Notes: generated by a model not told the origin, from the sequence alone. DNA of 21,625 bases from a virus (IMGVR_UViG_2563366928_000011); one strand, 5' to 3'. Shown: positions 249 through 20,365, counted from the first letter of the stretch. Translations and numbers: made by a program.

Positions 249-536
249 TTACTGTCTCTGGCAATCTTTATCGCGATAACGCCTGAAGTACCCTCTCGCT
301 TCCTCATCCATACCAAGAGCCGAATGAGTCCGCTTAACTGCCTGTCTTAAATCTCCGAATCTGTCTGTAGTTGCTGGTGGGCGTGCCGCCTTACGGATAC
401 ATTCAGAGCGTCTGTTTGCTGCATGTTCACGTTCTTTATCGCCATCTGCCAGCATCATGACTTCTGCCCATCGTGCGGCAGCTCTCCGGTATAGCCCTTT
501 TGACTCCAGCTCTTCAGCTTTCCTGTCCTTTATCAT
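249..536 (-). CDS. PerC-family (Pch-like) transcriptional regulator, putative
   Basis: 95-aa ORF. The N-terminal segment EELESKGLYRRAAARW resembles the conserved core of PerC/Pch prophage-borne regulators (from memory, not searched). ATG at 536 is preceded by GAGG and a TATAAT-like box. Confidence 0.55.
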   Translation of the reverse strand: MIKDRKAEELESKGLYRRAAARWAEVMMLADGDKEREHAANRRSECIRKAARPPATTDRFGDLRQAVKRTHSALGMDEEARGYFRRYRDKDCQRQ

Positions 537-1256: not shown

Positions 1257-2279
1257 TCAATCGCTCCCTTTCCGCCCTTCAGCTACAGGGTCGTTGTCGG
1301 CGATAACAAAACCTAAGTCCTGAGAGAATCTCTCTCGTGGGAATCCTTTAGCAGGTAAACCCATTGAATCATATCCACATCCGGGAACATTTGGTTTAGA
1401 GTCAATAAGGTCTGCAATTTGCCGAAGCCATGTTGATCCCGGACCAAGTCGTTTAACTAAGTACCAGATAATACAGATCGCGCTAAAAATCCTCTCGCAA
1501 CTCTCTGGATGGAGATTAAGTCCGTCAAAGTATTCATTATCCGGTACTGGAACTCGGGGATGCTTTCTATTCCATATTCTGGAATGGTGAGCGCAACGAT
1601 TCCTTATGAGATTAAGGCACTTCAACCATTTTGCAAATGTCTGCTTATTATCAATGCCAAAACGACGTATAATTTTCCCCTGCATATGACCATTAAGCAT
1701 CGCATAATATTTAGACATCTGACCAAAATCCCAGGTCTCCACCGCCACCCAAAATGGAATCTCCTTGCCTTGGCTTCGATGCCATTCAATACAGTCATCT
1801 CTGCTTTCGTCTAATTTTACTTTTTGCTTATACACCCAATGCTCGAAGGCAGATGAGAATTTTGGATTAATGTATTTTGATGACATGTAGGCAAGTGGAT
1901 CATTGCGACCAACCTCATGCGCGATGACTGAACGAACATGAATCTCTATTCTTTCGATAGCATCAATCATCAAAAGACGCAGTTTTTTGTCAAAAAGATA
2001 TAGATCGTACGTCTTCTCGAAACTGGTACCAGTAAGAAATCGGTCTGTTCTGTACGAAAGACCTTTATCTGTTGTCGCAATAATTCTTGATGGGTACCAA
2101 AAACCTGACAATCGATAATATCCAACCTGCGACAGCTTACGTATCGCACGATTTCGATCATTGATAATCATGCCACGTTCAAGTAGCAATCCTAGCAATT
2201 CGTGATAGTCCTTATGAGGCTTTGCGGCAATCATAGTGGCGAAACAAAAGATAATAAAAGGCCCGACCGTGAAACTCAC
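1257..2279 (-). CDS. Abi_2 family (AbiD/AbiF-like) abortive infection protein
   Basis: 340-aa ORF. N-terminal LLERGMIINDRNRAIRKLSQVGYYRLSGFWYP matches the characteristic Abi_2 N-terminal motif. Start uncertain: GTG at 2279 or ATG at 2234. Confidence 0.7.
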   Translation of the reverse strand: MSFTVGPFIIFCFATMIAAKPHKDYHELLGLLLERGMIINDRNRAIRKLSQVGYYRLSGFWYPSRIIATTDKGLSYRTDRFLTGTSFEKTYDLYLFDKKLRLLMIDAIERIEIHVRSVIAHEVGRNDPLAYMSSKYINPKFSSAFEHWVYKQKVKLDESRDDCIEWHRSQGKEIPFWVAVETWDFGQMSKYYAMLNGHMQGKIIRRFGIDNKQTFAKWLKCLNLIRNRCAHHSRIWNRKHPRVPVPDNEYFDGLNLHPESCERIFSAICIIWYLVKRLGPGSTWLRQIADLIDSKPNVPGCGYDSMGLPAKGFPRERFSQDLGFVIADNDPVAEGRKGSD

Positions 2280-2610
2280 ATGCCTGAAATCGGCGGCGGA
2301 GAAACAGAGGATCGGGCTCGGTTGCCTGTAACTCTATCCGAAGTTATCCACATGTCAATGCACAGTTACTTAGGAAACTAACATAGGTACTATCATCACT
2401 CACGAAAAACCACTATATGTGGTTTTTATTCATATCGTTATCCACTACAGGCTGTGTCAATAACTTTTACCTATTAATTGGGTAATTTCTACATTTTCCT
2501 ATGCTGTCTAGTTTCTCTACTGAAAAGTTGGCACTCCTTAATCGCTTTTCGGTTAATACTATCGGTCTTCATATTGCCAGCAGCATACGCCATCCGATAA
2601 TTTCGATGCT

Positions 2611-2995
2611 ACGCGCGCGTACTTGTCGCAAAATATCAGGCAAAGGCCAGATTCAGAACGTCGTGATAACCACCAGCACAACATGAGATGTCATGTAACA
2701 CGATTTATCACATCAGATACATGTGATTGGTGTACCCGCATAAAACATCGTCATAGCGCGTCCTGTGCGCATATACGCCGATAATCAACACATCACCACC
2801 ACTCTGTCTCGTGTAGAGAACAGTTTCATGGTATCCCCCGCCATCGTGTGCGTACTGGTCGGACGTAGTTGCAAAAATTTTGCAACTGATACCCCTCGCG
2901 CGCGTACTGGTCACGAAATTGGTGTTTTGCTGTGGCAGTGATATCAGAAAAATCTTCCTGTTTCACATAAAGCGGATATGCGCGTACTGTAACGG
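2611..2995. repeat. Four dispersed copies of a GCGTACT(G/T)GTC motif in a noncoding stretch
   Basis: Read directly: GCGCGTACTTGTCG about 2615-2628; GTGCGTACTGGTCGG about 2848-2862; GCGCGTACTGGTCACG about 2898-2913; TGCGCGTACTGTAACGG about 2979-2995. Lies in the ORF-poor 2280-3126 interval. Confidence 0.35.
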
Positions 2996-3126
2996 CCCCA
3001 TCAACTGGGAGCGGATTTGAGCCCCGAATGTGTAGGCAATGTCACTTAACGTTTGTCGCATACCTTCCAGAAAAAGCGATTCATGAATAATAGGGGCATG
3101 AATGCCCGGCGTACCGGGCTTATTAG

Positions 3127-3825
3127 TTAATTTGGTGCTTTAGGGTCAACATTAAAAGTTATATCACCTTCTGTATTTTTCCCGGCATAGCTAGCGGCTA
3201 TTCTCGCCAACCCTTTGTAATCAGCAATTCCATCAGACTGTTGCGAGACGACTGAGCTACCAACTTTCCATAACATATTAATCTGCCGATTATTGAGATA
3301 AGCCTTGGCATCAAACGACTGGAGTATCACCCCTGCGCCGTAGAACGTGTCCGTCACAGTTGTGTTATACGCGCCAGTAATTCCATAAGTAGGCGTATAA
3401 ACTGTTGTTGCCGTTCCAGTGGTATTAGCTGTACCGTAGCCACCACCATAACTATTGAACGTGGTGTTAGAGTTTCCGTACGTTGTTGCTGAGCTCACAC
3501 CAGTTTGCCCGTATATTGGGATGGTTACATTACGAGTATTTGAAATGGCCCCGCTTCTCAAAAAGTTCAAGAGAATTACCTGGTCAGCCAATTTTTCATC
3601 TTTAACTTGTGTATATCCTTGGCTTGATAAACTGGCGGCTACTACCGTAGCTATTTGAGTGTATTCAATCTGTTTGGTGTTCCAAAGTTCTTGGCTTGCG
3701 GGGATGATCAAGAACTTCTTACCGACAGATTGCCCGGAAGATAAAGCATTGACCGTTACTAACGGTTTTTGTACGCATCCAGCCAATAATGACAGGGATA
3801 ATATTAAAAGAAGATTTTTAATCAT
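3127..3825 (-). CDS. Lipoprotein with Thr/Gly/Tyr-rich repetitive region (function unknown)
   Basis: 232-aa ORF. Signal peptide with lipobox MIKNLLLILSLSLLAGC. GGTGA RBS upstream of ATG at 3825. Central low-complexity T/G/Y/N-rich tract. Confidence 0.65.
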   Translation of the reverse strand: MIKNLLLILSLSLLAGCVQKPLVTVNALSSGQSVGKKFLIIPASQELWNTKQIEYTQIATVVAASLSSQGYTQVKDEKLADQVILLNFLRSGAISNTRNVTIPIYGQTGVSSATTYGNSNTTFNSYGGGYGTANTTGTATTVYTPTYGITGAYNTTVTDTFYGAGVILQSFDAKAYLNNRQINMLWKVGSSVVSQQSDGIADYKGLARIAASYAGKNTEGDITFNVDPKAPN

Positions 3826-3975
3826 GATAATCTCACCTAAGAATTGCGTGGTTATAAATTATCATCACTGTAAGCGAATGTAAGCCACAGGCTCGTAATG
3901 TGATATGGAATTTTGATAGTTGGCTCAATATCAGTATGCCGTCCTTGGCTATTATGGTTTTGTTAGTTAGAGCGT

Positions 3976-6702
3976 CTATTCCCATTCGCTAACATCTTTC
4001 ATGCCACTGAGGGTAGCTACAATCCCGGCCCTTGTCAGTTTCACGAATTCTTCAGCCCCAACGGCATCACGAATTGCTTTCATGGCAATTTTATTGGCCG
4101 AAAATCGTTTCTCTGCTGCGGCGATCGCTGCTGGTGATGCCCCTGCGCGCACTGCTTTTGTAGCTTCCTGAACGGCTTTCTCTATCGCATATCGACCACT
4201 TCTTGTCGCCCCAATCTTAGCCACAGCATTTCTTAGCGCGCCACCAGCAACCAAACCACTTATCGAACCAATTACACCACCGCCAAAGCCTCCAGCGATC
4301 GCACCTGACTGTTGAACTCCGTTCATAATCACGCCGACGATCTTTGGAAGGCCTGAATCGAGCGTTTTGAGAGCCTCAGTTGTTCTTCCCGTGCGCTCTA
4401 CGTATCGCTGCGGTCTGGTACTGGCTTTAGCGAGTACACCGAACTCTTTCATCATTCTACCGAGATCTGGCGCATGACGACTGATGGCGTTTACATTCTG
4501 CTGGGTCATGAGCTTGGCAAAATACTGGATACCTGACTCTTCACCGATTCCTCCCTTCTCTCCCTGCGCCACAGCATGCTGAAGAATAGATGCTATTGCA
4601 GGTTGGCGTTCTGCTTCCGGCAGCGCGGAGATAAGACGGTGAAAAGCTCCCGTTCCAGTGTTTGCGGATGCCTTAAGCGTATCGGCACCTTTTCTTACCA
4701 TAGCGTCTGATGCGAGATCTCGACCAAAAACAGATTCGGCATTTTGTTTGGCGATAATGTAACTTTTAGAGAGATCGTTAGCTTTCTGCCATTCTGTGAG
4801 GAAGTTTCCTTTTTCAGCCATGATGCGCATGTCATCAGTGATAGCTCTGCGCATTTCTCCGGCAATCCGGGCGGCATTGGCCTTACCTGCCCGGGTGTTT
4901 GCTTGTTCAGCATCAGCAAACTTAGTACGCCATGCCTTCATCCCGTCGAAGGTTATGCCGCCACCTTGGTTGTTGGCAGCCTGAAACTGTTTCATCTCCG
5001 GGCTGAGTGGAACATTGGCTGCTTTTTCTGCTTGGACGACAGCCATCCCATTACTCATTTTCATCCTTTCGCGTGGCATCGTGCTTCGCAGTTCTGCCCA
5101 TGCCATATTCTCTGCTGTTTTCATATCACTGAGGCTCGCGATGATGCGCTCTTTAATTGCTGCGCTTTTTTCTGATGCGCTTCCAGACTCAGCACCGAAA
5201 TCAGACAACTGCTTATTCAACTTTGAGGATATTTCATTGAAGGCCGTAAGGTGAGCATCCTGAACATTCCCAGGAGTTGATGCCAGAACACCTTCTGCTT
5301 GGGCAATTCCACGACTACCTGAGCGCATTCCAGGCGTCAGGGTGTTGATATTAATACCAGTGATTTTCGCCGCCTTAGCGACATCATCTCTGACGTTTGA
5401 TGCCTGCGATGCGATATGCTCTCGGCCTACGGCAGAACGCGCTGCTTTCGATACATCATTGGCGGTTTCCAGAGTATTTGCTGCCCCTAACACATGGCCT
5501 GATTGATTTGTATTACTCCGCAATACATCTCGCATTACGTCACTGGCTGTCTGTCCGCTCTTTATTAAAGCGCGTGCTCCTAGCGATCCTGCTAGGCCAA
5601 TACCTGTCTCTTTTGCTAGGTCTTCTGGGCTGATCTGCCCGTTCTTTTGGGCGTTCACCAATGTACCTGGCAGGTTTTCTGCCAACATACTAGCCACCTT
5701 TGTGGCCGCACGTTCAGCACGTGGAGCGTTGGCAACTGAAGAAGCTGCGGTAGCTGCCTTTCCTGCACCTAATCCTGTAATAAGGTAAGGTGCTAGCTGC
5801 TCACCAGCCTGCGCGTATGGATCTGTAGGTTGGTCTACTGGGCGAAAGACAGGTGATATGGGCGTGTATGTGCCATCACCCACACCAAGCTTCTGAGCTG
5901 CCCATGCTCCGGCTGATTGCGCCGCATTGACTACCCCCACGCCTGCGTCCATTACATCAAACGGTATATTAGCAATCCCTCTGGCCATCTGCTCTGGCGC
6001 AGCTTTCAGTCCTGGCGAAAGATATTCCATCTCAGGATTAAGGTTAGACTTGGCTACTTGCTGCTGCGGTTCCCCGGCATTTTCATCGGCGAGAAACTGA
6101 GCTCTTTTCTGCTCCCATGAACTGGCTGTTGGTAGTCCTGCTTCTATGTTCTTAAATTGCTGACGTTTTGCTTCCCATGCAGAAATATCTCCCACCTGAG
6201 AGATTTCTTTATCAAGCTCTGAGTAGTCAGGCTGCTGAAGATTGCGATGTTGACTGGTTTGTGCAAACTGCAAGATTTCACTGTCATCAGGGATTATTCC
6301 GGCATCTGCAAATTTACTTACGTAATTAGCCGTTTCATCTGGCAGTGTAGATTTACCGTTTCTGACGGCATTAATACGAGCATAGCCAGAATTATACCCA
6401 GCCAATGCCATACCTATATCACCAAATCGCTTCATTCCTTTATTGAGATGGTTTGCTGCGATATCCATTTGCTTTTCAAATGGCAGTGAGCGCGGATCTG
6501 TTCCACGATAACCAGCATCACTCATTACTGAGGGCATCAGTTGAGCAAATCCTCTAGCTCCTTTCGGTGACTCGGCACTTCCGTTACCACTAGATTCATT
6601 GCCAACTAATGTTTCCATCGTCCCTGATGGGAAACCATATTTTTCATCGAGATGACGGGAATAGGCTTTCTGTTTTTCTGTCAGTTGTGCCATCATTGCC
6701 AT
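3976..6702 (-). CDS. Large virion/ejection-type protein with N-terminal SLT lytic transglycosylase domain
   Basis: 908-aa ORF. N-terminus carries SLT-like motifs (GNESSGNGSAE..GARGFAQLMPS and ALAGYNSGYARI). Long Ala/Gly/Gln-rich helical remainder. Last gene of a four-gene cassette; start overlaps the stop of the upstream gene. Confidence 0.75.
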   Translation of the reverse strand: MAMMAQLTEKQKAYSRHLDEKYGFPSGTMETLVGNESSGNGSAESPKGARGFAQLMPSVMSDAGYRGTDPRSLPFEKQMDIAANHLNKGMKRFGDIGMALAGYNSGYARINAVRNGKSTLPDETANYVSKFADAGIIPDDSEILQFAQTSQHRNLQQPDYSELDKEISQVGDISAWEAKRQQFKNIEAGLPTASSWEQKRAQFLADENAGEPQQQVAKSNLNPEMEYLSPGLKAAPEQMARGIANIPFDVMDAGVGVVNAAQSAGAWAAQKLGVGDGTYTPISPVFRPVDQPTDPYAQAGEQLAPYLITGLGAGKAATAASSVANAPRAERAATKVASMLAENLPGTLVNAQKNGQISPEDLAKETGIGLAGSLGARALIKSGQTASDVMRDVLRSNTNQSGHVLGAANTLETANDVSKAARSAVGREHIASQASNVRDDVAKAAKITGININTLTPGMRSGSRGIAQAEGVLASTPGNVQDAHLTAFNEISSKLNKQLSDFGAESGSASEKSAAIKERIIASLSDMKTAENMAWAELRSTMPRERMKMSNGMAVVQAEKAANVPLSPEMKQFQAANNQGGGITFDGMKAWRTKFADAEQANTRAGKANAARIAGEMRRAITDDMRIMAEKGNFLTEWQKANDLSKSYIIAKQNAESVFGRDLASDAMVRKGADTLKASANTGTGAFHRLISALPEAERQPAIASILQHAVAQGEKGGIGEESGIQYFAKLMTQQNVNAISRHAPDLGRMMKEFGVLAKASTRPQRYVERTGRTTEALKTLDSGLPKIVGVIMNGVQQSGAIAGGFGGGVIGSISGLVAGGALRNAVAKIGATRSGRYAIEKAVQEATKAVRAGASPAAIAAAEKRFSANKIAMKAIRDAVGAEEFVKLTRAGIVATLSGMKDVSEWE

Positions 6703-8012
6703 CCCTTAAGTTTTGCCTGATAGTAACTTTCCGGCAGATAGCCATGTGCGGTCACATAATCCTTAACCAGTGAAGGATCCTGCAACAGCATTTTGGTATC
6801 AGTTTCTTCGTCCTTAGATTTGGTTACAGGAATACCGAGCCCGGCAATCTGTCGTTTCTGCATTCGAATAATTACGTCCTGCGCTTTATTCAACTCTCGC
6901 AAAAATGCCTCATTGCTGGTTGCTGACTTAATGCCATTTTGAGATTGCATAAGGGCAGCCCTTTCCCCTTCGGTTGGGTTAGAGCCAAAAGTCCCTTTGA
7001 GGCTAGGCAGAATAACCTTTAGGTTGTATTCATCAGCTTTGGCGCGTAGGCTTCGTGTGTCTTCTGCTACATCAGGAAGGAATCCAAACCCCAGCGTCAG
7101 GGGGTTATAGTTCTGCGAGCGGGTAACGGCCGAAGGATGTTTCCCTACAATTCCCGCCAGTTCATGACCCACTTCAAGCGCAGAGTTCAAGGAGTCGATG
7201 TTACCTGCAACAGTATTAATTTTATCGTTCATCTTCTCCACTTTCGCCTGCTGTACCTTGCTCAGTTCAGCATTGAGCTTGTCTCTCTCGATGTCATTTT
7301 GAGCACGTCCAAGTCGTGCTTTCAGAACCATTTCTCTCGTGCGTAGTTGGTTATCGGATAGGACTTTGAACTGCTCCATATCGAGACGTCGATTACCCTG
7401 TTCCGCATTAACCTGAGCATTATATGCGGATGTATCTGCGTTCTGCTGTGCAATGCTCTGCCCTTGCTGCTTCTCTTGAACACTAAAGTAACTATTTGGA
7501 TCAGCATGGAGGTGGATGAGGTCAGTGATTCTGTTGAATTCCTGTGGGTCATTCTGCCAAGACTGATAAACCTCTTCAGCAGGAAGACCAAATCGCTGTA
7601 ATACTGGATTTGCCTGCTGAATGGCCTTCTGCATGATCAGTGGATCTCCAGTTTGTGACGCAAGACGCAGATTCATGGCAGCGTCAGCGGTCTGTCGATT
7701 TTGCTCAGCATCAATGAATCCCATCTGTTTTTGAGAATCAGCCATAAACTGGGGATACTGGGCCATTAACTTCTGCACGCCAACACGATCATTATTAGCT
7801 ACCGCACTACCCAACCGTGCCTGATATTCTTTTAACTGCTGGGAAATTTGCGCCTGCTGATTAATCTCAGCAACGCCTCTTAGCCCCTGTAGCGCCATTA
7901 AACCTACGTTTGGCTGCTGCTGATACTGCACAGGCTGAGGAACGGAAGAACGAGGAGCATTATCATTTTGCGGTGCCATGCTAGGCAGCCCGCCAAGTTG
8001 CCATGTCGCCAT
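6693..8012 (-). CDS. Ejection/DNA-transfer-type protein, putative (P22 gp20-like by size and position)
   Basis: 439-aa ORF. Q/A/N-rich, predicted coiled-coil character. Tightly packed between the 225-aa and 908-aa genes. Assignment rests on architecture, not on a search. Confidence 0.6.
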   Translation of the reverse strand: MATWQLGGLPSMAPQNDNAPRSSVPQPVQYQQQPNVGLMALQGLRGVAEINQQAQISQQLKEYQARLGSAVANNDRVGVQKLMAQYPQFMADSQKQMGFIDAEQNRQTADAAMNLRLASQTGDPLIMQKAIQQANPVLQRFGLPAEEVYQSWQNDPQEFNRITDLIHLHADPNSYFSVQEKQQGQSIAQQNADTSAYNAQVNAEQGNRRLDMEQFKVLSDNQLRTREMVLKARLGRAQNDIERDKLNAELSKVQQAKVEKMNDKINTVAGNIDSLNSALEVGHELAGIVGKHPSAVTRSQNYNPLTLGFGFLPDVAEDTRSLRAKADEYNLKVILPSLKGTFGSNPTEGERAALMQSQNGIKSATSNEAFLRELNKAQDVIIRMQKRQIAGLGIPVTKSKDEETDTKMLLQDPSLVKDYVTAHGYLPESYYQAKLKGWQ

Positions 8013-8689
8013 TAGAATCCAAGCCCCCCAACAAGACCAATAAGCCCACCACCAATAGCGCCGGCCGCAGTTCCTATTCCAGGAACAACGGAACCAAGTT
8101 GCGCACCCGCTAAAGCGCCTGATGCTGCCCCACCAATACCACGCGCAAGACTGGATGGCTGCTGCGCCTGACCTGCACGAATAGCGCCAAGCCCCTGCAA
8201 GAGTTGTCCGGTATTATTGGCGTAGTTTTGCCCTGCCGTTGCCTGCCCTGATGCCGCATTCATCCCGACATTTAGCAGGTTTCCATAATTTTGCATTTGC
8301 CCACTGAGCCAATTGTTATAAAGCATGGGCGCAATGGAAGATAACTGGTTACTGGTAGCTGTTGAGCCAAGCCCCCCGGTAGCTTCTGCTGAGACAAGGT
8401 TCTGATAACGGGCCTGATCTGCCTGTGTTTTATATAAACCAGAACCAAAGAAATCATTCGCGGCTTTATTCTGCCCTTCCAGAGTCATCAGTCCTTGCAG
8501 TTGTTGTAAAGCAGGCAATCCGACTTCTGCATACGGCTTGAGATTATTCATCACCGTATTCCACTGCTCGCGCTGCAAATCAATTGCCTGCTGCTGGGCC
8601 TTCGCCTGAGCTTTAGAGGCACCACCATCACCGCCTTTTTCGTATACGGCACGATTGAGATGTTTATGAGCTATATGGGTAATTAACAT
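8012..8689 (-). CDS. Ejection/DNA-transfer-type protein, putative (P22 gp7-like by size and position)
   Basis: 225-aa ORF. Gly/Ala-rich with hydrophobic Gly-zipper C-terminus (GGLIGLVGGLGF). ATG at 8689 overlaps the upstream stop as ATGTTAA. Confidence 0.55.
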   Translation of the reverse strand: MLITHIAHKHLNRAVYEKGGDGGASKAQAKAQQQAIDLQREQWNTVMNNLKPYAEVGLPALQQLQGLMTLEGQNKAANDFFGSGLYKTQADQARYQNLVSAEATGGLGSTATSNQLSSIAPMLYNNWLSGQMQNYGNLLNVGMNAASGQATAGQNYANNTGQLLQGLGAIRAGQAQQPSSLARGIGGAASGALAGAQLGSVVPGIGTAAGAIGGGLIGLVGGLGF

Positions 8690-9144
8690 TCGCTGAATTC
8701 CTTATATTGTTGCCGAGTTAACTGATAAAGCGTTACGCCGACGGGTTTACCACATCTGATATAAGCATCATCAAGGTGACCAACACGGGTAGCGCCAAGC
8801 AAACGGATAATTGCCCGTCCATATTTTGTGGTGTCAGGAACCATAGTGATGCTGTTAAGGAATGGTGAGTTTTCGAGAAGCCACTTGCAGAATAATCGAT
8901 GCCCTTGCAGTGCATATTCACCACGGAATCCGGGGTCGTACACCGCATGGCATTCAACAACGCTATGCCAGAAGTTACGCACTTCATGAACGCCAGCCAG
9001 CACTAATCCTTCGTAGATGCCGAGATATACCGCATCAGGCTTGATGTAGTACGTGTGCCCCGGCTCAACAATATTTTCGGTATTGCCTGGCTCGTTAAGA
9101 AAGGCCTGTAATCGCACAGGGTTATCAATAAATTTTAGTTCCAT
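8683..9144 (-). CDS. Hypothetical protein, first large gene of the ejection-like cassette (gp14-like position)
   Basis: 153-aa ORF with protein-like composition, 16 nt downstream of the small RHH-like ORF. No motif recognised. Confidence 0.55.
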   Translation of the reverse strand: MELKFIDNPVRLQAFLNEPGNTENIVEPGHTYYIKPDAVYLGIYEGLVLAGVHEVRNFWHSVVECHAVYDPGFRGEYALQGHRLFCKWLLENSPFLNSITMVPDTTKYGRAIIRLLGATRVGHLDDAYIRCGKPVGVTLYQLTRQQYKEFSEC

Positions 9145-15189: not shown

Positions 15190-15380
15190 TTTTCACCCCC
15201 AAGAATTACCAGCTCGGCACGGGCATCGTTAACCAAAGATGAGCACGCTTTAATCGCATCCACGACATCAGCAGCGTCCATTTCTTCAGCCGAAAGACTG
15301 ACAGCAACCAGGACAGCCGCTGCTTGCTCGATTAATTGAAGTGCGGACGTAAGGCGAGGGGTATTAATTGAGTTATTCAT
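15186..15380 (-). CDS. Hypothetical small protein (about 64 aa)
   Basis: Start revised from 15437 to ATG at 15380: GGGGG RBS and ATGAATAA overlap with the stop of the upstream reading frame. Confidence 0.45.
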   Translation of the reverse strand: MNNSINTPRLTSALQLIEQAAAVLVAVSLSAEEMDAADVVDAIKACSSLVNDARAELVILGGEK

Positions 15381-16440
15381 TGGTTGCCCCCGTTTTTCCT
15401 GGCATTTCGCCACCTTCCAGCAGGAAATGAACGTCACGAACGGCGAGATCCAATATCGCGAGTAACGCCTTCAGTCTTTCGTCTCGTGAGGGAGAGTTGC
15501 TCACCAGAATGTCGTTAATCACTTCTGTCAGTGTGATGATCTGGCTTGTGCGTTCGAGGGGATCCATATGCACATCGTAGGTTTTAATCATGTGCCACCT
15601 CCATGCGGATACGACCAGCAAAAAAGCAGATGTGATCGCGCACCAGAGAACGGCGAGCATCGCGTTCAGACTCGGCAGCAATATGATGAATTTTGGCGGT
15701 AATTGTCGGGCAATCGCGGCGAACTGCGGCGATAATCCAGATAAATTGCGGTTTTTGGGTAGGGGTAGTAGCCAGCATGTGGCAGCCTCCATTCGATAGC
15801 ATGTAACGCTACCACCGGAAACGCCAATTTCGCTGGTGGTAGCCCAGACAGGGTTGGCGTAACCGGCTCGAATGGATACCGGCGCTTCCGAAGAAGCCCC
15901 TGCCTGAGCCACCATTGATTGACAAAGGCGCTGGATTATACACCAACGCCCAAAAAATGGGTGAGTCAGACCTACGACATAAAAAAAGACGCTCGGCGCG
16001 TCATATGTCGCCATTCGATTTACCAGGACGCCAATCCCGGCACCCGTTTTATGAGGTGCCTTATAACCATAAACCGTGTTGCCGCATAACGGCAAGCTCT
16101 TTTTTATGGACTCCGAAAACTCACTATTGGAAGAACCAGAAGCACAGTACATCGCGCTCATTTCGTTAACGTCACGCGCGTGGACGAATGTTTTTGTGGA
16201 GTCACTACACGAGCGGAAGACATCATCTACGACCAGAAATTTTCTGGCGCAGCCGCTGACCTTCTCAAGGCTAATATCATCGCCCGAGATTTCTGGTATG
16301 GTTAAGGCATCCGTTCCGACCACCAGCAAATGATAAACTTTGCTTGTATCTGCTGTATTAATGCCTGACTTTGCCGTCATATTTCTGGATTTTGGCGACA
16401 TGCCAGCCAGTGAAAATGTCTTCTTCTGGACGGGTATCAT
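15373..16440 (-). CDS. Hypothetical protein; long ORF of uncertain internal structure
   Basis: ATG at 16440 with GGAGG RBS and ATGA overlap with the upstream stop. First ~170 residues look protein-like. Residues ~170-283 are W/C/S-rich (junk-like). Last 72 aa are again protein-like with their own GGAGG RBS (ATG 15591). Confidence 0.4.
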
Positions 16441-18607: not shown

Positions 18608-19126
18608 ATGAGTGTGCCGCAAACAAAAGCTGAACTGCTTTTAGCTATTGATAAAAATTTTAGTAAATTAATTAGTTACCTCAACACAATCCCACCAGAA
18701 ATTACTTCAGATAAATCAATGGACGGACACGCCAAAGGAACGGAGATGAGTGTTCGTGATCTCGTTTCGTATCTGCTTGGATGGAATGCTCTTGTTGTAA
18801 AGTGGATCGCTTCTGATGCTAAAGGTCTGCCTGTCGATTTTCCGGAAACTGGCTATAAATGGAATCAGCTTGGCCTTCTTGCTCAAAAATTTTACTCAGA
18901 TTACAGTGAGTTAAGTTATGAGTTGTTAGTAGCTGAACTTCAGACTGTAAAAAATGAGATTGTGAACCTTATTAATGATCGTACCGATGATATTTTGTAT
19001 GGAAGACCATGGTACACAAAATGGACGATGGGGAGAATGATCTCATTTAACACATCTTCGCCTTACGCCAACGCTAATGGAAGATTAAGAAAGTGGGCAA
19101 AAAATAATAATATCAGTTTAAAGTAA
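18608..19126 (+). CDS. ClbS/DfsB-family (DUF1706) four-helix-bundle protein
   Basis: 172-aa ORF. Matches remembered ClbS-type motifs (GHAKGT..SV.DLVSYL.GW, WN.LG.LAQKFY, GRPWYTKWT.GRMI.FNT.SPY). Lower GC than surroundings. Confidence 0.7.
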   Translation: MSVPQTKAELLLAIDKNFSKLISYLNTIPPEITSDKSMDGHAKGTEMSVRDLVSYLLGWNALVVKWIASDAKGLPVDFPETGYKWNQLGLLAQKFYSDYSELSYELLVAELQTVKNEIVNLINDRTDDILYGRPWYTKWTMGRMISFNTSSPYANANGRLRKWAKNNNISLK

Positions 19127-19144
19127 GCTTCAGAATGAAATTAT

Positions 19145-20365
19145 ATGGACGAAAAATCCCTCTATGCCCATATCCTTAACCTGACTGCACCATGGCAGGT
19201 TAAATCCCTTACCCTCGATGAAAATGCAGGTTCCGTTACTGTTACAGTCGGAATTGCTGAAAATACTCAGTTAACCTGTCCGACCTGCAGGAAATCCTGT
19301 TCTGTTCACGATCACCGACATCGTAAATGGCGCCACCTTGATACCTGCCAGTTCATGACATTAGTAGAAGCCGATGTTCCCCGCGTTATGTGCCCGGAGC
19401 ATGGCTGCCAGACTCTGCCTGTACCGTGGGCAGGTTCCGGCAGTCGGTACACTCTGCTGTTCGAATCGTTCGTGCTCTCATGGCTTAAAATCAGCACCGT
19501 TGATGCGGTCAGAAAACAACTTAAACTTAGCTGGAATGCCGTTGACGGCATCATGACCCGCGCGGTTAAGCGAGGCCTGTCGCGGATTAAAAAGCCTTTA
19601 TCAGTGCGTCATATGAATGTAGACGAAGTCGCCTTTAAAAAAGGGCATAGGTATATAACCGTGGTATCTGATCGCGACGGGCGGGCACTGGCATTAACCG
19701 ATGATCGTGGCACAGAGAGTCTTGCCAGCTATCTCCGTTCGCTTACTGACAGTCAGTTGTTGGCCATCAAAACACTGTCGATGGACATGAATGCGGGCTA
19801 TATAAGAGCAGCGCGTATCCATTTACCCAATGCGGTCGAGAAAATCGCCTTCGATCGCTTCCATGTGGCGAAGCAACTGGGCGAAGTGGTTGATAAAACC
19901 CGCCAGAATGAACATCCGCACCTCCCTGTTGAAAGTCGTCGTCAGGCCAAAGGTACCCGCTTCCTGTGGCAGTACAGCGACAAATGGATGACTGAGTCCC
20001 GGCAGGAAAAGCTGATGTGGTTGCGGGAACAGATGCAACAGACAAGCCAGTGCTGGACACTGAAAGAGCTGGCAAAAAATATCTGGGATCGCCCCTGGAG
20101 CACAGAACGCAGGAATGACTGGTTGCAGTGGATATCGCTGGCGTCTGAATGTGATGTGCCGATGATGAAAAACGCAGCGAAAACCATTAAAAAACGGTTA
20201 TACGGAATACTGAATGCAATGCGTCATCGCGTCTCGAATGGAAATGCGGAGGCGCTGAACAGCAAGATCAGACTGCTGAGGATAAAGGCCAGGGGATACC
20301 GAAACCGGGAACGCTTTAAACTGGGAGTTATGTTCCACTATGGGAAACTGAATATGGCGTACTGA
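19145..20365 (+). CDS. ISL3-family transposase
   Basis: 406-aa ORF. N-terminal C2C2 zinc-finger region (CPTCRKSC...CPEHGC) followed by a DDE-type core typical of ISL3 transposases. Bounded by the inverted repeats above. Confidence 0.85.
   Translation: MDEKSLYAHILNLTAPWQVKSLTLDENAGSVTVTVGIAENTQLTCPTCRKSCSVHDHRHRKWRHLDTCQFMTLVEADVPRVMCPEHGCQTLPVPWAGSGSRYTLLFESFVLSWLKISTVDAVRKQLKLSWNAVDGIMTRAVKRGLSRIKKPLSVRHMNVDEVAFKKGHRYITVVSDRDGRALALTDDRGTESLASYLRSLTDSQLLAIKTLSMDMNAGYIRAARIHLPNAVEKIAFDRFHVAKQLGEVVDKTRQNEHPHLPVESRRQAKGTRFLWQYSDKWMTESRQEKLMWLREQMQQTSQCWTLKELAKNIWDRPWSTERRNDWLQWISLASECDVPMMKNAAKTIKKRLYGILNAMRHRVSNGNAEALNSKIRLLRIKARGYRNRERFKLGVMFHYGKLNMAY

Follow-up and report, generated by a model that had tools for sequence, protein, structure and literature searches.

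Cor (of phages phi80, N15 and T1) and Llp (of T5) are small outer-membrane lipoproteins of approximately 60-80 amino acids (aa), which are encoded by phages among tail or structural genes, act on FhuA and block superinfection. TraT (PF05818) is the conjugative surface-exclusion and complement-resistance lipoprotein of IncF plasmids. In phage P22, the exclusion gene sieA lies directly after gene 16, and its product acts at the inner membrane. PelC forms a 12-mer ring, and CsgG is a 9-mer in which beta-hairpins inserted in the core build a transmembrane barrel. TraT combines an LptE-like core with transmembrane helices and a long beta-hairpin, and assembles into a decameric outer-membrane 'cork' (PMC11733297; 10.1101/2025.05.27.656304); the helices that anchor its barrel have been described as three amphipathic helices per protomer (PMC11733297) and as two transmembrane helices (10.1101/2025.05.27.656304). 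SieA blocks P22-type injection via gp16/gp20 (PMC10883804). Here we analyze a lipoprotein gene carried on the minus strand of a 21,625-nucleotide (nt) stretch of viral DNA, IMGVR_UViG_2563366928_000011 (the whole stretch is referred to as the window), where it follows a set of P22-type genes for ejection proteins (the ejection cassette).

An earlier reading of the window, made from the sequence alone (hereafter, the original prediction), had proposed that this gene encodes a surface-type lipoprotein and a candidate for receptor masking or exclusion. Our preferred reading is that of an oligomeric ring or barrel lipoprotein of the outer membrane that excludes phages at the DNA-delivery step, and we give it a probability of roughly 40%. 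We infer the exclusion function from context and fold, i.e., because of the use of the sieA slot, the adjacency to DNA-delivery genes, the co-occurrence with the ejection cassette, the anti-phage-type genes nearby and the predicted fold of the protein.

The open reading frame (ORF) at 3127..3825 (minus strand) was confirmed, with an ATG start and a product of 232 aa that is recorded in RefSeq as WP_000594596.1, 'hypothetical protein', and in UniRef as 'Lipoprotein'. The following signals were found in and around it.

3775..3825, minus strand: signal peptide and lipobox, residues 1-17, with L14-A15-G16-C17, as read from the sequence
3832..3837, minus strand: Shine-Dalgarno sequence GGTGAG, 6 nt 5' of the lipoprotein ATG, kept in island homologues
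3826..3975, minus strand: 150-bp spacer between the gp16-like gene and the lipoprotein gene, with a conserved block, GCTTACATTCGCTTACAGTGATGATAATTTATAACCAC (approximately 3848-3885)
3104..3119, no strand assigned: GC-rich stem-loop GCCCGG-CGTA-CCGGGC, terminator-like, 8 nt past the lipoprotein stop

The N-terminus (MIKNLLLILSLSLLAGC) is composed of a Lys n-region, a Leu-rich h-region and the lipobox L-A-G-C, and is a class-II signal peptide. Residues 14-17 match the pattern [LVI][ASTVI][GAS]C, and Cys17 is conserved in at least 90% of 26 aligned homologues, which upholds the lipobox and the lipoprotein assignment of the original prediction. The residue that follows the lipobox Cys (+2) decides Lol sorting to the outer membrane. 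By this rule the mature lipoprotein should be sorted to the outer membrane, because its +2 residue is Val; the +3 residue is Gln, and an Asp-type Lol avoidance signal is absent at +2. Compared with homologues that are 86-89% identical, the ratio of nonsynonymous to synonymous substitutions (dN/dS) is approximately 0.04 (dN 0.06-0.07, dS approximately 1.5-1.9), with synonymous sites saturated. The gene is real and under strong purifying selection.

When the locus was examined for the properties of a moron, we found a terminator-like hairpin, which closes the leftward gene block, a differing GC content (approximately 0.43-0.45, vs approximately 0.50 in the gp16-like gene), the conserved spacer block and only a weak sigma70-like match in the spacer (3978-3951), where the consensus scan scored no better than shuffled sequence. 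The spacer also contains, in all island versions, a direct repeat (GCTTACAT/GCTTACAG) and an AT-rich block (alignment A3). Its parts at 3848-3885 and 3945-3965 (minus strand) are conserved despite saturated synonymous sites in the coding sequence, and a motif directly past the gp16 stop, GCCA(A/T)GGAnGGC, is conserved even in a Serratia P22-like prophage. These elements could represent a regulatory or RNA-processing site.

The element that carries the gene is a P4-like integrase/AlpA/primase island, located at tRNA-Thr beside proA in Escherichia coli. The order of its genes is P4-type integrase, ISL3 insertion (in this window), AlpA, an AntA/B-family gene, an 'ash' region, an alpha-type Zn-ribbon/Toprim/DUF5906 primase, the ejection cassette, the lipoprotein gene, AbiD and PerC. 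No capsid, portal, tail or tailspike genes were identified within the 21,625-nt window. The P22-type cassette consists of a 53-aa ORF, DUF2824/gp14, gp7, gp20 and a 908-aa SLT-gp16-like protein, whose homologues carry PF26808 (Phage_P22_gp16). The larger genes of the cassette and the genes beyond the lipoprotein are as follows.

8683..9144, minus strand: gp14-like DUF2824 protein, first large gene of the cassette (1.5e-61)
8012..8689, minus strand: gp7-like ejection protein (6.6e-73)
6693..8012, minus strand: gp20-like ejection protein (Inj_translocase, 9.4e-22)
3976..6702, minus strand: gp16-like ejection protein, 908 aa, with an N-terminal SLT lytic-transglycosylase domain (SLT 1.1e-12)
1257-2279, minus strand: AbiD, an Abi_2 abortive-infection gene (PADLOC AbiD 6.9e-58), approximately 850 bp downstream of the lipoprotein gene
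249-536, minus strand: PerC-family regulator, in the same island

The last ejection gene ends 150 bp upstream of the lipoprotein gene, on the same strand, and the placement of the latter directly after the ejection cassette was correctly described. The original prediction had further assigned it to the moron position of P22-type prophages. The slot is indeed the one used by sieA in P22 and by a homologue in Serratia; the element, on the other hand, is a P4-like island and not a P22-type prophage. The positional argument survives because P22 has sieA after gene 16 and the Serratia homologue, which is 62% identical, is likewise placed. In related primase islands of other Enterobacteriaceae, the lipoprotein gene always follows the ejection cassette and the gene order is kept. 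A complete lipoprotein region is found in 74 (approximately 1.4%) of 5426 complete E. coli genomes and a full ejection cassette in 72 of the 5426, i.e., the two co-occur in a ratio near 1:1. In E. coli 042, a sister island carries a gp20/gp16 pair that differs from this one and lacks the lipoprotein; its post-gp16 slot is occupied by another gene.

5227-5616 of the E. coli 042 locus (L066), plus strand: 129-aa protein with four hydrophobic helices and no PHROG match

This protein is encoded on the opposite strand, with the same placement and orientation as P22 sieA, and is a candidate SieA analogue. Together with AbiD and with a reverse transcriptase that lies near a Vibrio relative, it was counted in favor of the exclusion idea.

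The tight linkage to the ejection genes, on the same strand and after them, could also mean that the lipoprotein is a component of the virion, i.e., a sixth cassette member, packaged and then ejected. Proteins with a lipobox signal peptide are exported and lipidated, which is incompatible with capsid assembly in the cytoplasm. In addition, relatives of the protein are chromosomal in many phyla, and it is absent from P22 and other sequenced phages. We therefore regard a role in the ejection machinery as extremely improbable.

All closer relatives with usable context were located in a prophage or an integrase island. In the P22-like prophage of Serratia, the homologue is directly after gp16, in the order tail accessory genes, gp14, gp7, gp20, SLT-gp16, lipoprotein, arc (opposite strand) and tailspike gene, and it occupies exactly the sieA slot of P22. 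In prophages with a T7 module, homologues of 39-42% identity directly follow a protein of 1129 or 921 aa, the first of which is a T7-gp16-type 'internal virion protein with endolysin domain' (phrog_342, 6.7e-214); tail-fibre or tailspike genes lie downstream, with the T7 tail-fibre N-terminal domain on the proteins scanned. A Rouxiella homologue (46% identical) is found between gpK (JAB + NlpC/P60) and gpI/J of a lambda-like tail module. This module has a second small lipoprotein gene (phrog_890; L061 9708-10106, plus strand) directly after the homologue, such that two lipoproteins are inserted between gpK and gpI. Homologues also occur in viral contigs from metagenomes, and in two other viral contigs the homologue adjoins tape-measure genes. 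More distant relatives include one in a Vibrio integrase island, with the reverse transcriptase directly upstream, one in an integrase/AlpA/primase island and one in a phage-like contig. What these contexts repeatedly share is a neighboring gene whose product breaches the envelope as DNA is delivered, and many of these products have a muralytic domain.

In most mobile-element contexts, the adjacent gene is muralytic by domain or PHROG match. The neighbors include SLT on the gp16-like protein, the T7-gp16-type protein with an endolysin domain, lambda gpK with NlpC/P60, a tape-measure protein with PHROG matches to tail-associated lysin and endolysin families, and an adaptor protein with a PHROG endolysin match. 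The position of the lipoprotein gene downstream of such genes resembles that in effector-immunity gene pairs, which are established for the type VI secretion system (T6SS). These observations would suit an immunity or inhibitor protein that acts against the neighboring virion-borne peptidoglycan hydrolase by neutralizing the incoming SLT or lysin domain in the periplasm, a function that we consider rather improbable. Modeled on the MliC/PliC lysozyme inhibitors and the T6SS Tsi immunity proteins, it would amount to a specific molecular mechanism for exclusion, with the same small likelihood. The lipoprotein has no Pfam match to the MliC, Ivy or Pli families, its long membrane-type hairpin would be left unexplained, its chromosomal relatives occur without a partner enzyme, and the adjacency to lysins may merely mirror the adjacency to DNA-delivery proteins.

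The T7-module prophages bear on the time of expression. In these prophages there is no spacer before the lipoprotein gene, which starts 11 bp past the stop of the upstream late gene or overlaps it, and in the lambda-like prophage the gene sits between tail genes. One account of P22 includes the observation that outer-membrane vesicles (OMVs) inactivate this phage (PMC7541932). Such data are compatible with a protein that is expressed late, has no role in the lysogen and only protects progeny, corresponding to the second role of T5 Llp, by altering the outer-membrane fragments or vesicles of the lysing cell so that ejection into debris is stopped. However, the sole virion genes of the element in the window are those of the ejection cassette, and the terminator-like hairpin after the lipoprotein gene and the conserved 150-bp spacer before it fit independent expression better. 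Progeny protection as the only function appears to us to be quite improbable.

The center of the protein is a tract rich in Thr, Gly and Tyr, TTYGNSNTTFNSYGGGYGTANTTGTATTVYTPTYGITGAYNTTV (residues 114-157), which had been described as repetitive and of low complexity. The bias in composition was verified: residues 99-158 form a 60-residue run without any charge in which T+G+Y amount to 58%. The repetition was not, as Tandem Repeats Finder (TRF) detected no tandem repeat in the tract at the DNA level. The tract is also not a disordered low-complexity linker, because no other part of the protein is as well conserved, and we rejected that interpretation. Its main parts are as follows.

3352..3531, minus strand: charge-free Thr/Gly/Tyr-rich segment, residues 99-158, exposed part of the predicted hairpin
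3475..3519, minus strand: motif 1, P103-x-[WFY]-G-Q-T-G-V-S-S-x-T-T-x-G117, on the ascending strand
3373..3405, minus strand: motif 2, T141-x-Y-x-P-T-Y-G-I-T-G151, on the descending strand

Nearly all invariant columns in the 26-homologue alignment fall within the tract, whose invariant motifs are GQTGVSS..TT.G and PTYGITG. These columns are P103, G106, Q107, T108, G109, T115, G117 and G127, and, in the second half, T141, P145, T146, Y147, G148, T150 and G151. In a set of 164 representatives from the wider family, conservation is 100% at G106, G109 and G151, at least 96% at each of P103, T108, T115, T141, P145, Y147 and G148, and 94% and 91% at Q107 and G117, respectively; positions 99-154 are essentially free of charged residues. 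One face of the descending strand is purely Thr/Ser/Gly (136, 138, 140, 142, 144, 146, 148, 150), forming a Thr ladder, and the opposite face is Tyr/Ile/Pro/Gly (137, 143, 145, 147, 149). In comparisons with the homologues from Serratia, Rouxiella and the T7-module prophages, the rate of evolution in the tract is 2-4 times lower than in its flanks. In the enterobacterial phage clade, the hairpin tip is 4+5 residues longer than in most of the family. The Thr/Gly/Tyr tract is the functional core of the protein and a conserved structural element.

Structure prediction, which had been suggested as a check, was carried out with AlphaFold2 as a monomer, using the 26-sequence alignment (mean predicted local distance difference test score (pLDDT) 85; predicted template modeling score (pTM) 0.66). 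The model consists of an alpha/beta core, similar to those of TraT, PelC and LptE, and a single very long beta-hairpin, with strands at 82-127 and 130-172, a tip at G128-G129 and pLDDT of 73-87. The central insertion is all beta; helices are those of the signal peptide and of the core (52-67 and 201-212), in addition to two short ones (45-50 and 173-179). Foldseek matched the model to 4l8n, DUF4136, TraT, PelC and LptE. The core resembles ring-forming outer-membrane lipoproteins (PelC, TraT, the DUF4136 protein BT2437, CsgG and LptE), and the model has both the fold of BT2437, a solved DUF4136 member (4f54), and the combination of LptE-like alpha/beta core and long beta-hairpin seen in TraT. 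An LptE/PelC/TraT/DUF4136-type core bearing one charge-free hairpin is thus predicted, consistent with the pattern of conservation. Foldseek also aligned the hairpin with the pore-state stems of CDTb, epsilon toxin, iota Ib, lysenin, aerolysin and anthrax protective antigen (PA); these matches are confined to the hairpin, with TM-scores of 0.10-0.17. Like the lipoprotein, beta-barrel toxins (aerolysin, epsilon toxin, lysenin, anthrax PA, CDTb/Ib) have a long, Ser/Thr-rich, amphipathic beta-hairpin in their stems, but their remaining fold and biology are unrelated, as is the lipid anchor of the protein studied here. From these similarities we infer a homo-oligomeric ring in which the hairpins form a beta-barrel stem. 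The viral structure library BFVD gave no meaningful match (all TM-scores <0.2). In PDB, a sequence search with the single protein returned transthyretin and ERGIC-53 (E approximately 0.07-1) and a profile search one glucanase, all of which were rejected as spurious.

The lipoprotein and TraT have several features in common. Both are outer-membrane lipoproteins of mobile elements with similar size (243 aa in TraT vs 232 aa), they show a weak collinear profile match over the N-terminal half, and both have a membrane-type mid-chain insertion plus a long beta-hairpin. Unlike TraT, the lipoprotein has no Gly/Ala-rich transmembrane helices, and because of their absence no alpha-helical barrel is expected; its insertion is a charge-free Thr/Tyr/Gly beta-hairpin with invariant motifs of its own, and it is found in phages and islands rather than in tra operons, such that its target, if any, would be a phage rather than a mating pair. 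With TraT, a profile-profile comparison (hhalign) covering the N-terminal 78 columns yielded a probability of 83% (E 8.5e-6), a value that rests partly on the signal peptide, which these columns include, and on a shallow TraT profile, as the TraT search gave only proteins at least 80% identical to its query. With Pfam, the lipoprotein scored 12.9 bits against TraT (PF05818), far below the threshold of 31, and 0 of the 26 aligned homologues matched; with the transmembrane helices absent, membership in the TraT family was rejected. The protein is, according to the model, a new mobile-element lipoprotein of the TraT/LptE fold group, in which a predicted beta-hairpin stem replaces the helical barrel of TraT.

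PelC, CsgG and LptE have no sequence similarity to the lipoprotein, and no pel, csg or lpt partner genes are nearby. The hairpin-built barrel of CsgG is the architecture that we propose here from a predicted monomer, with the difference that CsgG has two hairpins per protomer and the lipoprotein one. SieA (phrog_7745) shares the slot directly after gene 16 and a proposed block of DNA delivery by short-tailed phages. However, it is a polytopic inner-membrane protein, encoded on the opposite strand with its own promoter, whereas the lipoprotein is encoded on the cassette strand, and the two have no sequence or fold relationship; we rejected such a relationship, as the lipoprotein has no phrog_7745 match and P22 SieA, used as a control, matches at 9.2e-109. 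Compared with Cor and Llp, the lipoprotein is three times larger, with a different fold and no homology. Profile phrog_1119 (Cor) was matched only by one homologue, over its signal peptide (residues 1-26), and membership in the Cor/Llp group was likewise rejected.

At the level of superfamily, the protein belongs to DUF4136 (PF13590), which includes the solved structures BT2437 (PDB 4f54) and BDI_1242 (PDB 4l8n). Its own DUF4136 score is 14.2 bits (E 0.062), i.e., below the gathering threshold of 32.8 bits. However, 14 of the 26 aligned homologues match DUF4136 at E<=0.01 (best 1.3e-15), and phmmer ties the lipoprotein to PF13590-annotated proteins with E down to 1e-22, from which membership holds transitively, as judged by sequence comparison. 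The hairpin-bearing branch with GQTGVSS/PTYGITG motifs is a distinct DUF4136 subfamily. This membership says nothing on mechanism because DUF4136 has no known function; none was found in the literature searched. NCBIfam gave no match for the lipoprotein. A profile search of 1.84 billion representatives yielded 3875 clusters at E<=1e-3, of which 669 were at E<=1e-30, and nearly all were 210-260 aa long. Relatives with 25-33% identity were found by genome scan in metagenome-assembled genomes (MAGs) and genomes labeled Desulfobulbus, Pirellulales, Akkermansia, Nitrospirae, Kiritimatiellia, Methylococcales, Photobacterium, Nitrosospira and others. The lipoprotein is therefore a member of a large, uncharacterized, mostly chromosomal, hairpin-bearing branch of DUF4136.

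The existence of this large chromosomal family, which has no conserved neighbors, could suggest that a housekeeping DUF4136-type lipoprotein was picked up by chance and that the copy is passive cargo with no function for the mobile element. Against this possibility are the strong purifying selection within mobile elements, the independent occurrence in four or more unrelated architectures of phages or islands, each time with penetration genes beside it, and the enterobacterial phage clade with its own 4+5-residue extension. We assign to passive cargo a low likelihood.

A chromosomal ancestral family so widespread could also point to a general envelope role. In this case, the protein would be a lysogenic-conversion factor that alters the outer membrane (serum or complement resistance, barrier function, stress tolerance) and helps the host without excluding phages. 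Serum or complement resistance has been reported for TraT, Bor and Iss, and a TraT-like, LptE-like core fold and the PerC-family regulator within the same island are in line with such a function, as is the source of the strains, with the best-matching E. coli record being from blood culture and most listed E. coli records being human isolates. On the other hand, homologues are also present in Serratia and Rouxiella prophages and in viral contigs from metagenomes, there is no sequence similarity to Bor or Iss and that to TraT is sub-threshold, and the repeated placement beside DNA-delivery genes would not be explained. We view a pure envelope factor as unlikely.

Under the exclusion reading, the lipoprotein would be processed by Sec, Lgt and LspA and then sorted by Lol to the outer membrane. 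There, by analogy with its 9- to 12-mer structural neighbors and with toxin stems, it may form a homo-oligomeric ring whose hairpins would together build a beta-barrel stem, either inserted in the outer membrane or attached to it. The gene may have been captured by temperate phages and satellite-like islands from the widespread chromosomal lipoprotein family and placed beside the genes whose products open the way through the envelope for the DNA. Its most likely job would be superinfection exclusion at the envelope, stopping incoming phages at or just after adsorption. The most plausible targets would be short-tailed phages with gp7/gp20/gp16-type conduits, and the level of action would be the outer membrane or periplasm, making the protein a counterpart of the inner-membrane SieA. 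Copies co-transcribed with late genes may, in addition, guard progeny from ejection into debris, as T5 Llp does.

Several observations weigh against the exclusion reading. The lipoprotein has no sequence homology to proteins of demonstrated exclusion activity, no match in PHROGs at E<=0.1 or in PADLOC, and no tblastn match in 50,697 phage genomes (INPHARED). The consensus scan of the 150-bp spacer revealed no convincing sigma70 promoter. In several phages the gene is embedded in a late operon with no room for its own promoter, and is therefore unlike classical exclusion morons, which are expressed by the lysogen. Finally, the broad family (3875 clusters) is mostly chromosomal. Neighbor clustering revealed no shared neighbor among 31 distant chromosomal loci, and a crude search for recombinases, primases and reverse transcriptases was positive for 2 of 38 distant loci, such that the family as a whole is not borne by mobile elements. 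Because of these properties, the ancestral function was probably a housekeeping role in the envelope, which phage copies may merely keep. The candidacy for exclusion is, then, supported in part by position, mobile-element association and the fold link to TraT, and not by membership in the Cor, Llp, SieA or TraT families: in the homology comparison suggested initially, Cor and Llp gave no PHROG match for the protein and TraT only the sub-threshold score.

A more specific version of the exclusion reading, which we hold to be doubtful, is that phage- and satellite-borne ring or beta-barrel lipoproteins form a hitherto unrecognized family, a structural sister group of TraT, and act at the outer membrane or in the periplasm to block the trans-envelope conduit through which short-tailed phages eject their DNA, with the lysin-bearing gp16-type protein as a possible contact. 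If so, conjugative surface exclusion and phage superinfection exclusion would share one fold superfamily, and the TraT/LptE/PelC fold group would extend to phage biology. The protein would be the first injection blocker at the outer-membrane level described for podoviruses, and a second, structurally unrelated protein in the sieA slot, acting from the outer membrane. It would also offer a new handle on envelope crossing by the gp7/gp20/gp16 conduit and provide the first function for the hairpin-bearing DUF4136 branch, with its thousands of members. With the gene in approximately 1.4% of complete E. coli genomes, many of them of human clinical isolates, exclusion could affect the host range of therapeutic phages.

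The remaining features of the island are as follows.

15832-15919, minus strand: C4 antisense RNA (79.5 bits)
15982-16059, minus strand: isrK (67.1 bits)
18608-19126, plus strand: DUF1706 passenger gene of the ISL3 insertion, between AlpA and integrase
19145-20365, plus strand: ISL3-family transposase, between AlpA and integrase (insertion 18608-20365)

The C4 and isrK RNAs fall within a 355-aa ORF (15373-16440) annotated as 'ash family protein', and because they overlie it this ORF call is doubtful; immunity in this island is probably RNA-based, of the P4/P1 type. In E. coli AF14 (L001), the locus is otherwise near-identical and has only approximately 430 bp where the ISL3 insertion sits. The gp20-like gene of AF14 (L001 23794-25114) is annotated as frameshifted and is intact in the window (439 aa), and some cassette copies therefore appear from sequence to be decaying. 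The matching RefSeq locus has no annotation of sid, delta or psu. The island could act as a satellite, with ejection proteins of its own that it provides to a P22-like helper; in the literature searched, we found no satellites described as encoding such proteins. Partial cassette matches are present in approximately 600 more E. coli genomes, e.g., E. coli 042, and those listed range from the gp14/gp7/gp20-start region down to DUF2824 alone.

AbiD and the PerC-family regulator make up a cargo or defense end of the island. Between AbiD and the lipoprotein gene, approximately 850 bp (2280-3126) have no gene annotated in the matching RefSeq locus. A 121-bp piece of this region (2900-3020) occurs alone, with 95-100% identity, in approximately 460 more E. 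coli genomes without the lipoprotein, and the region, especially this piece, may be conserved backbone or junction sequence of the island.

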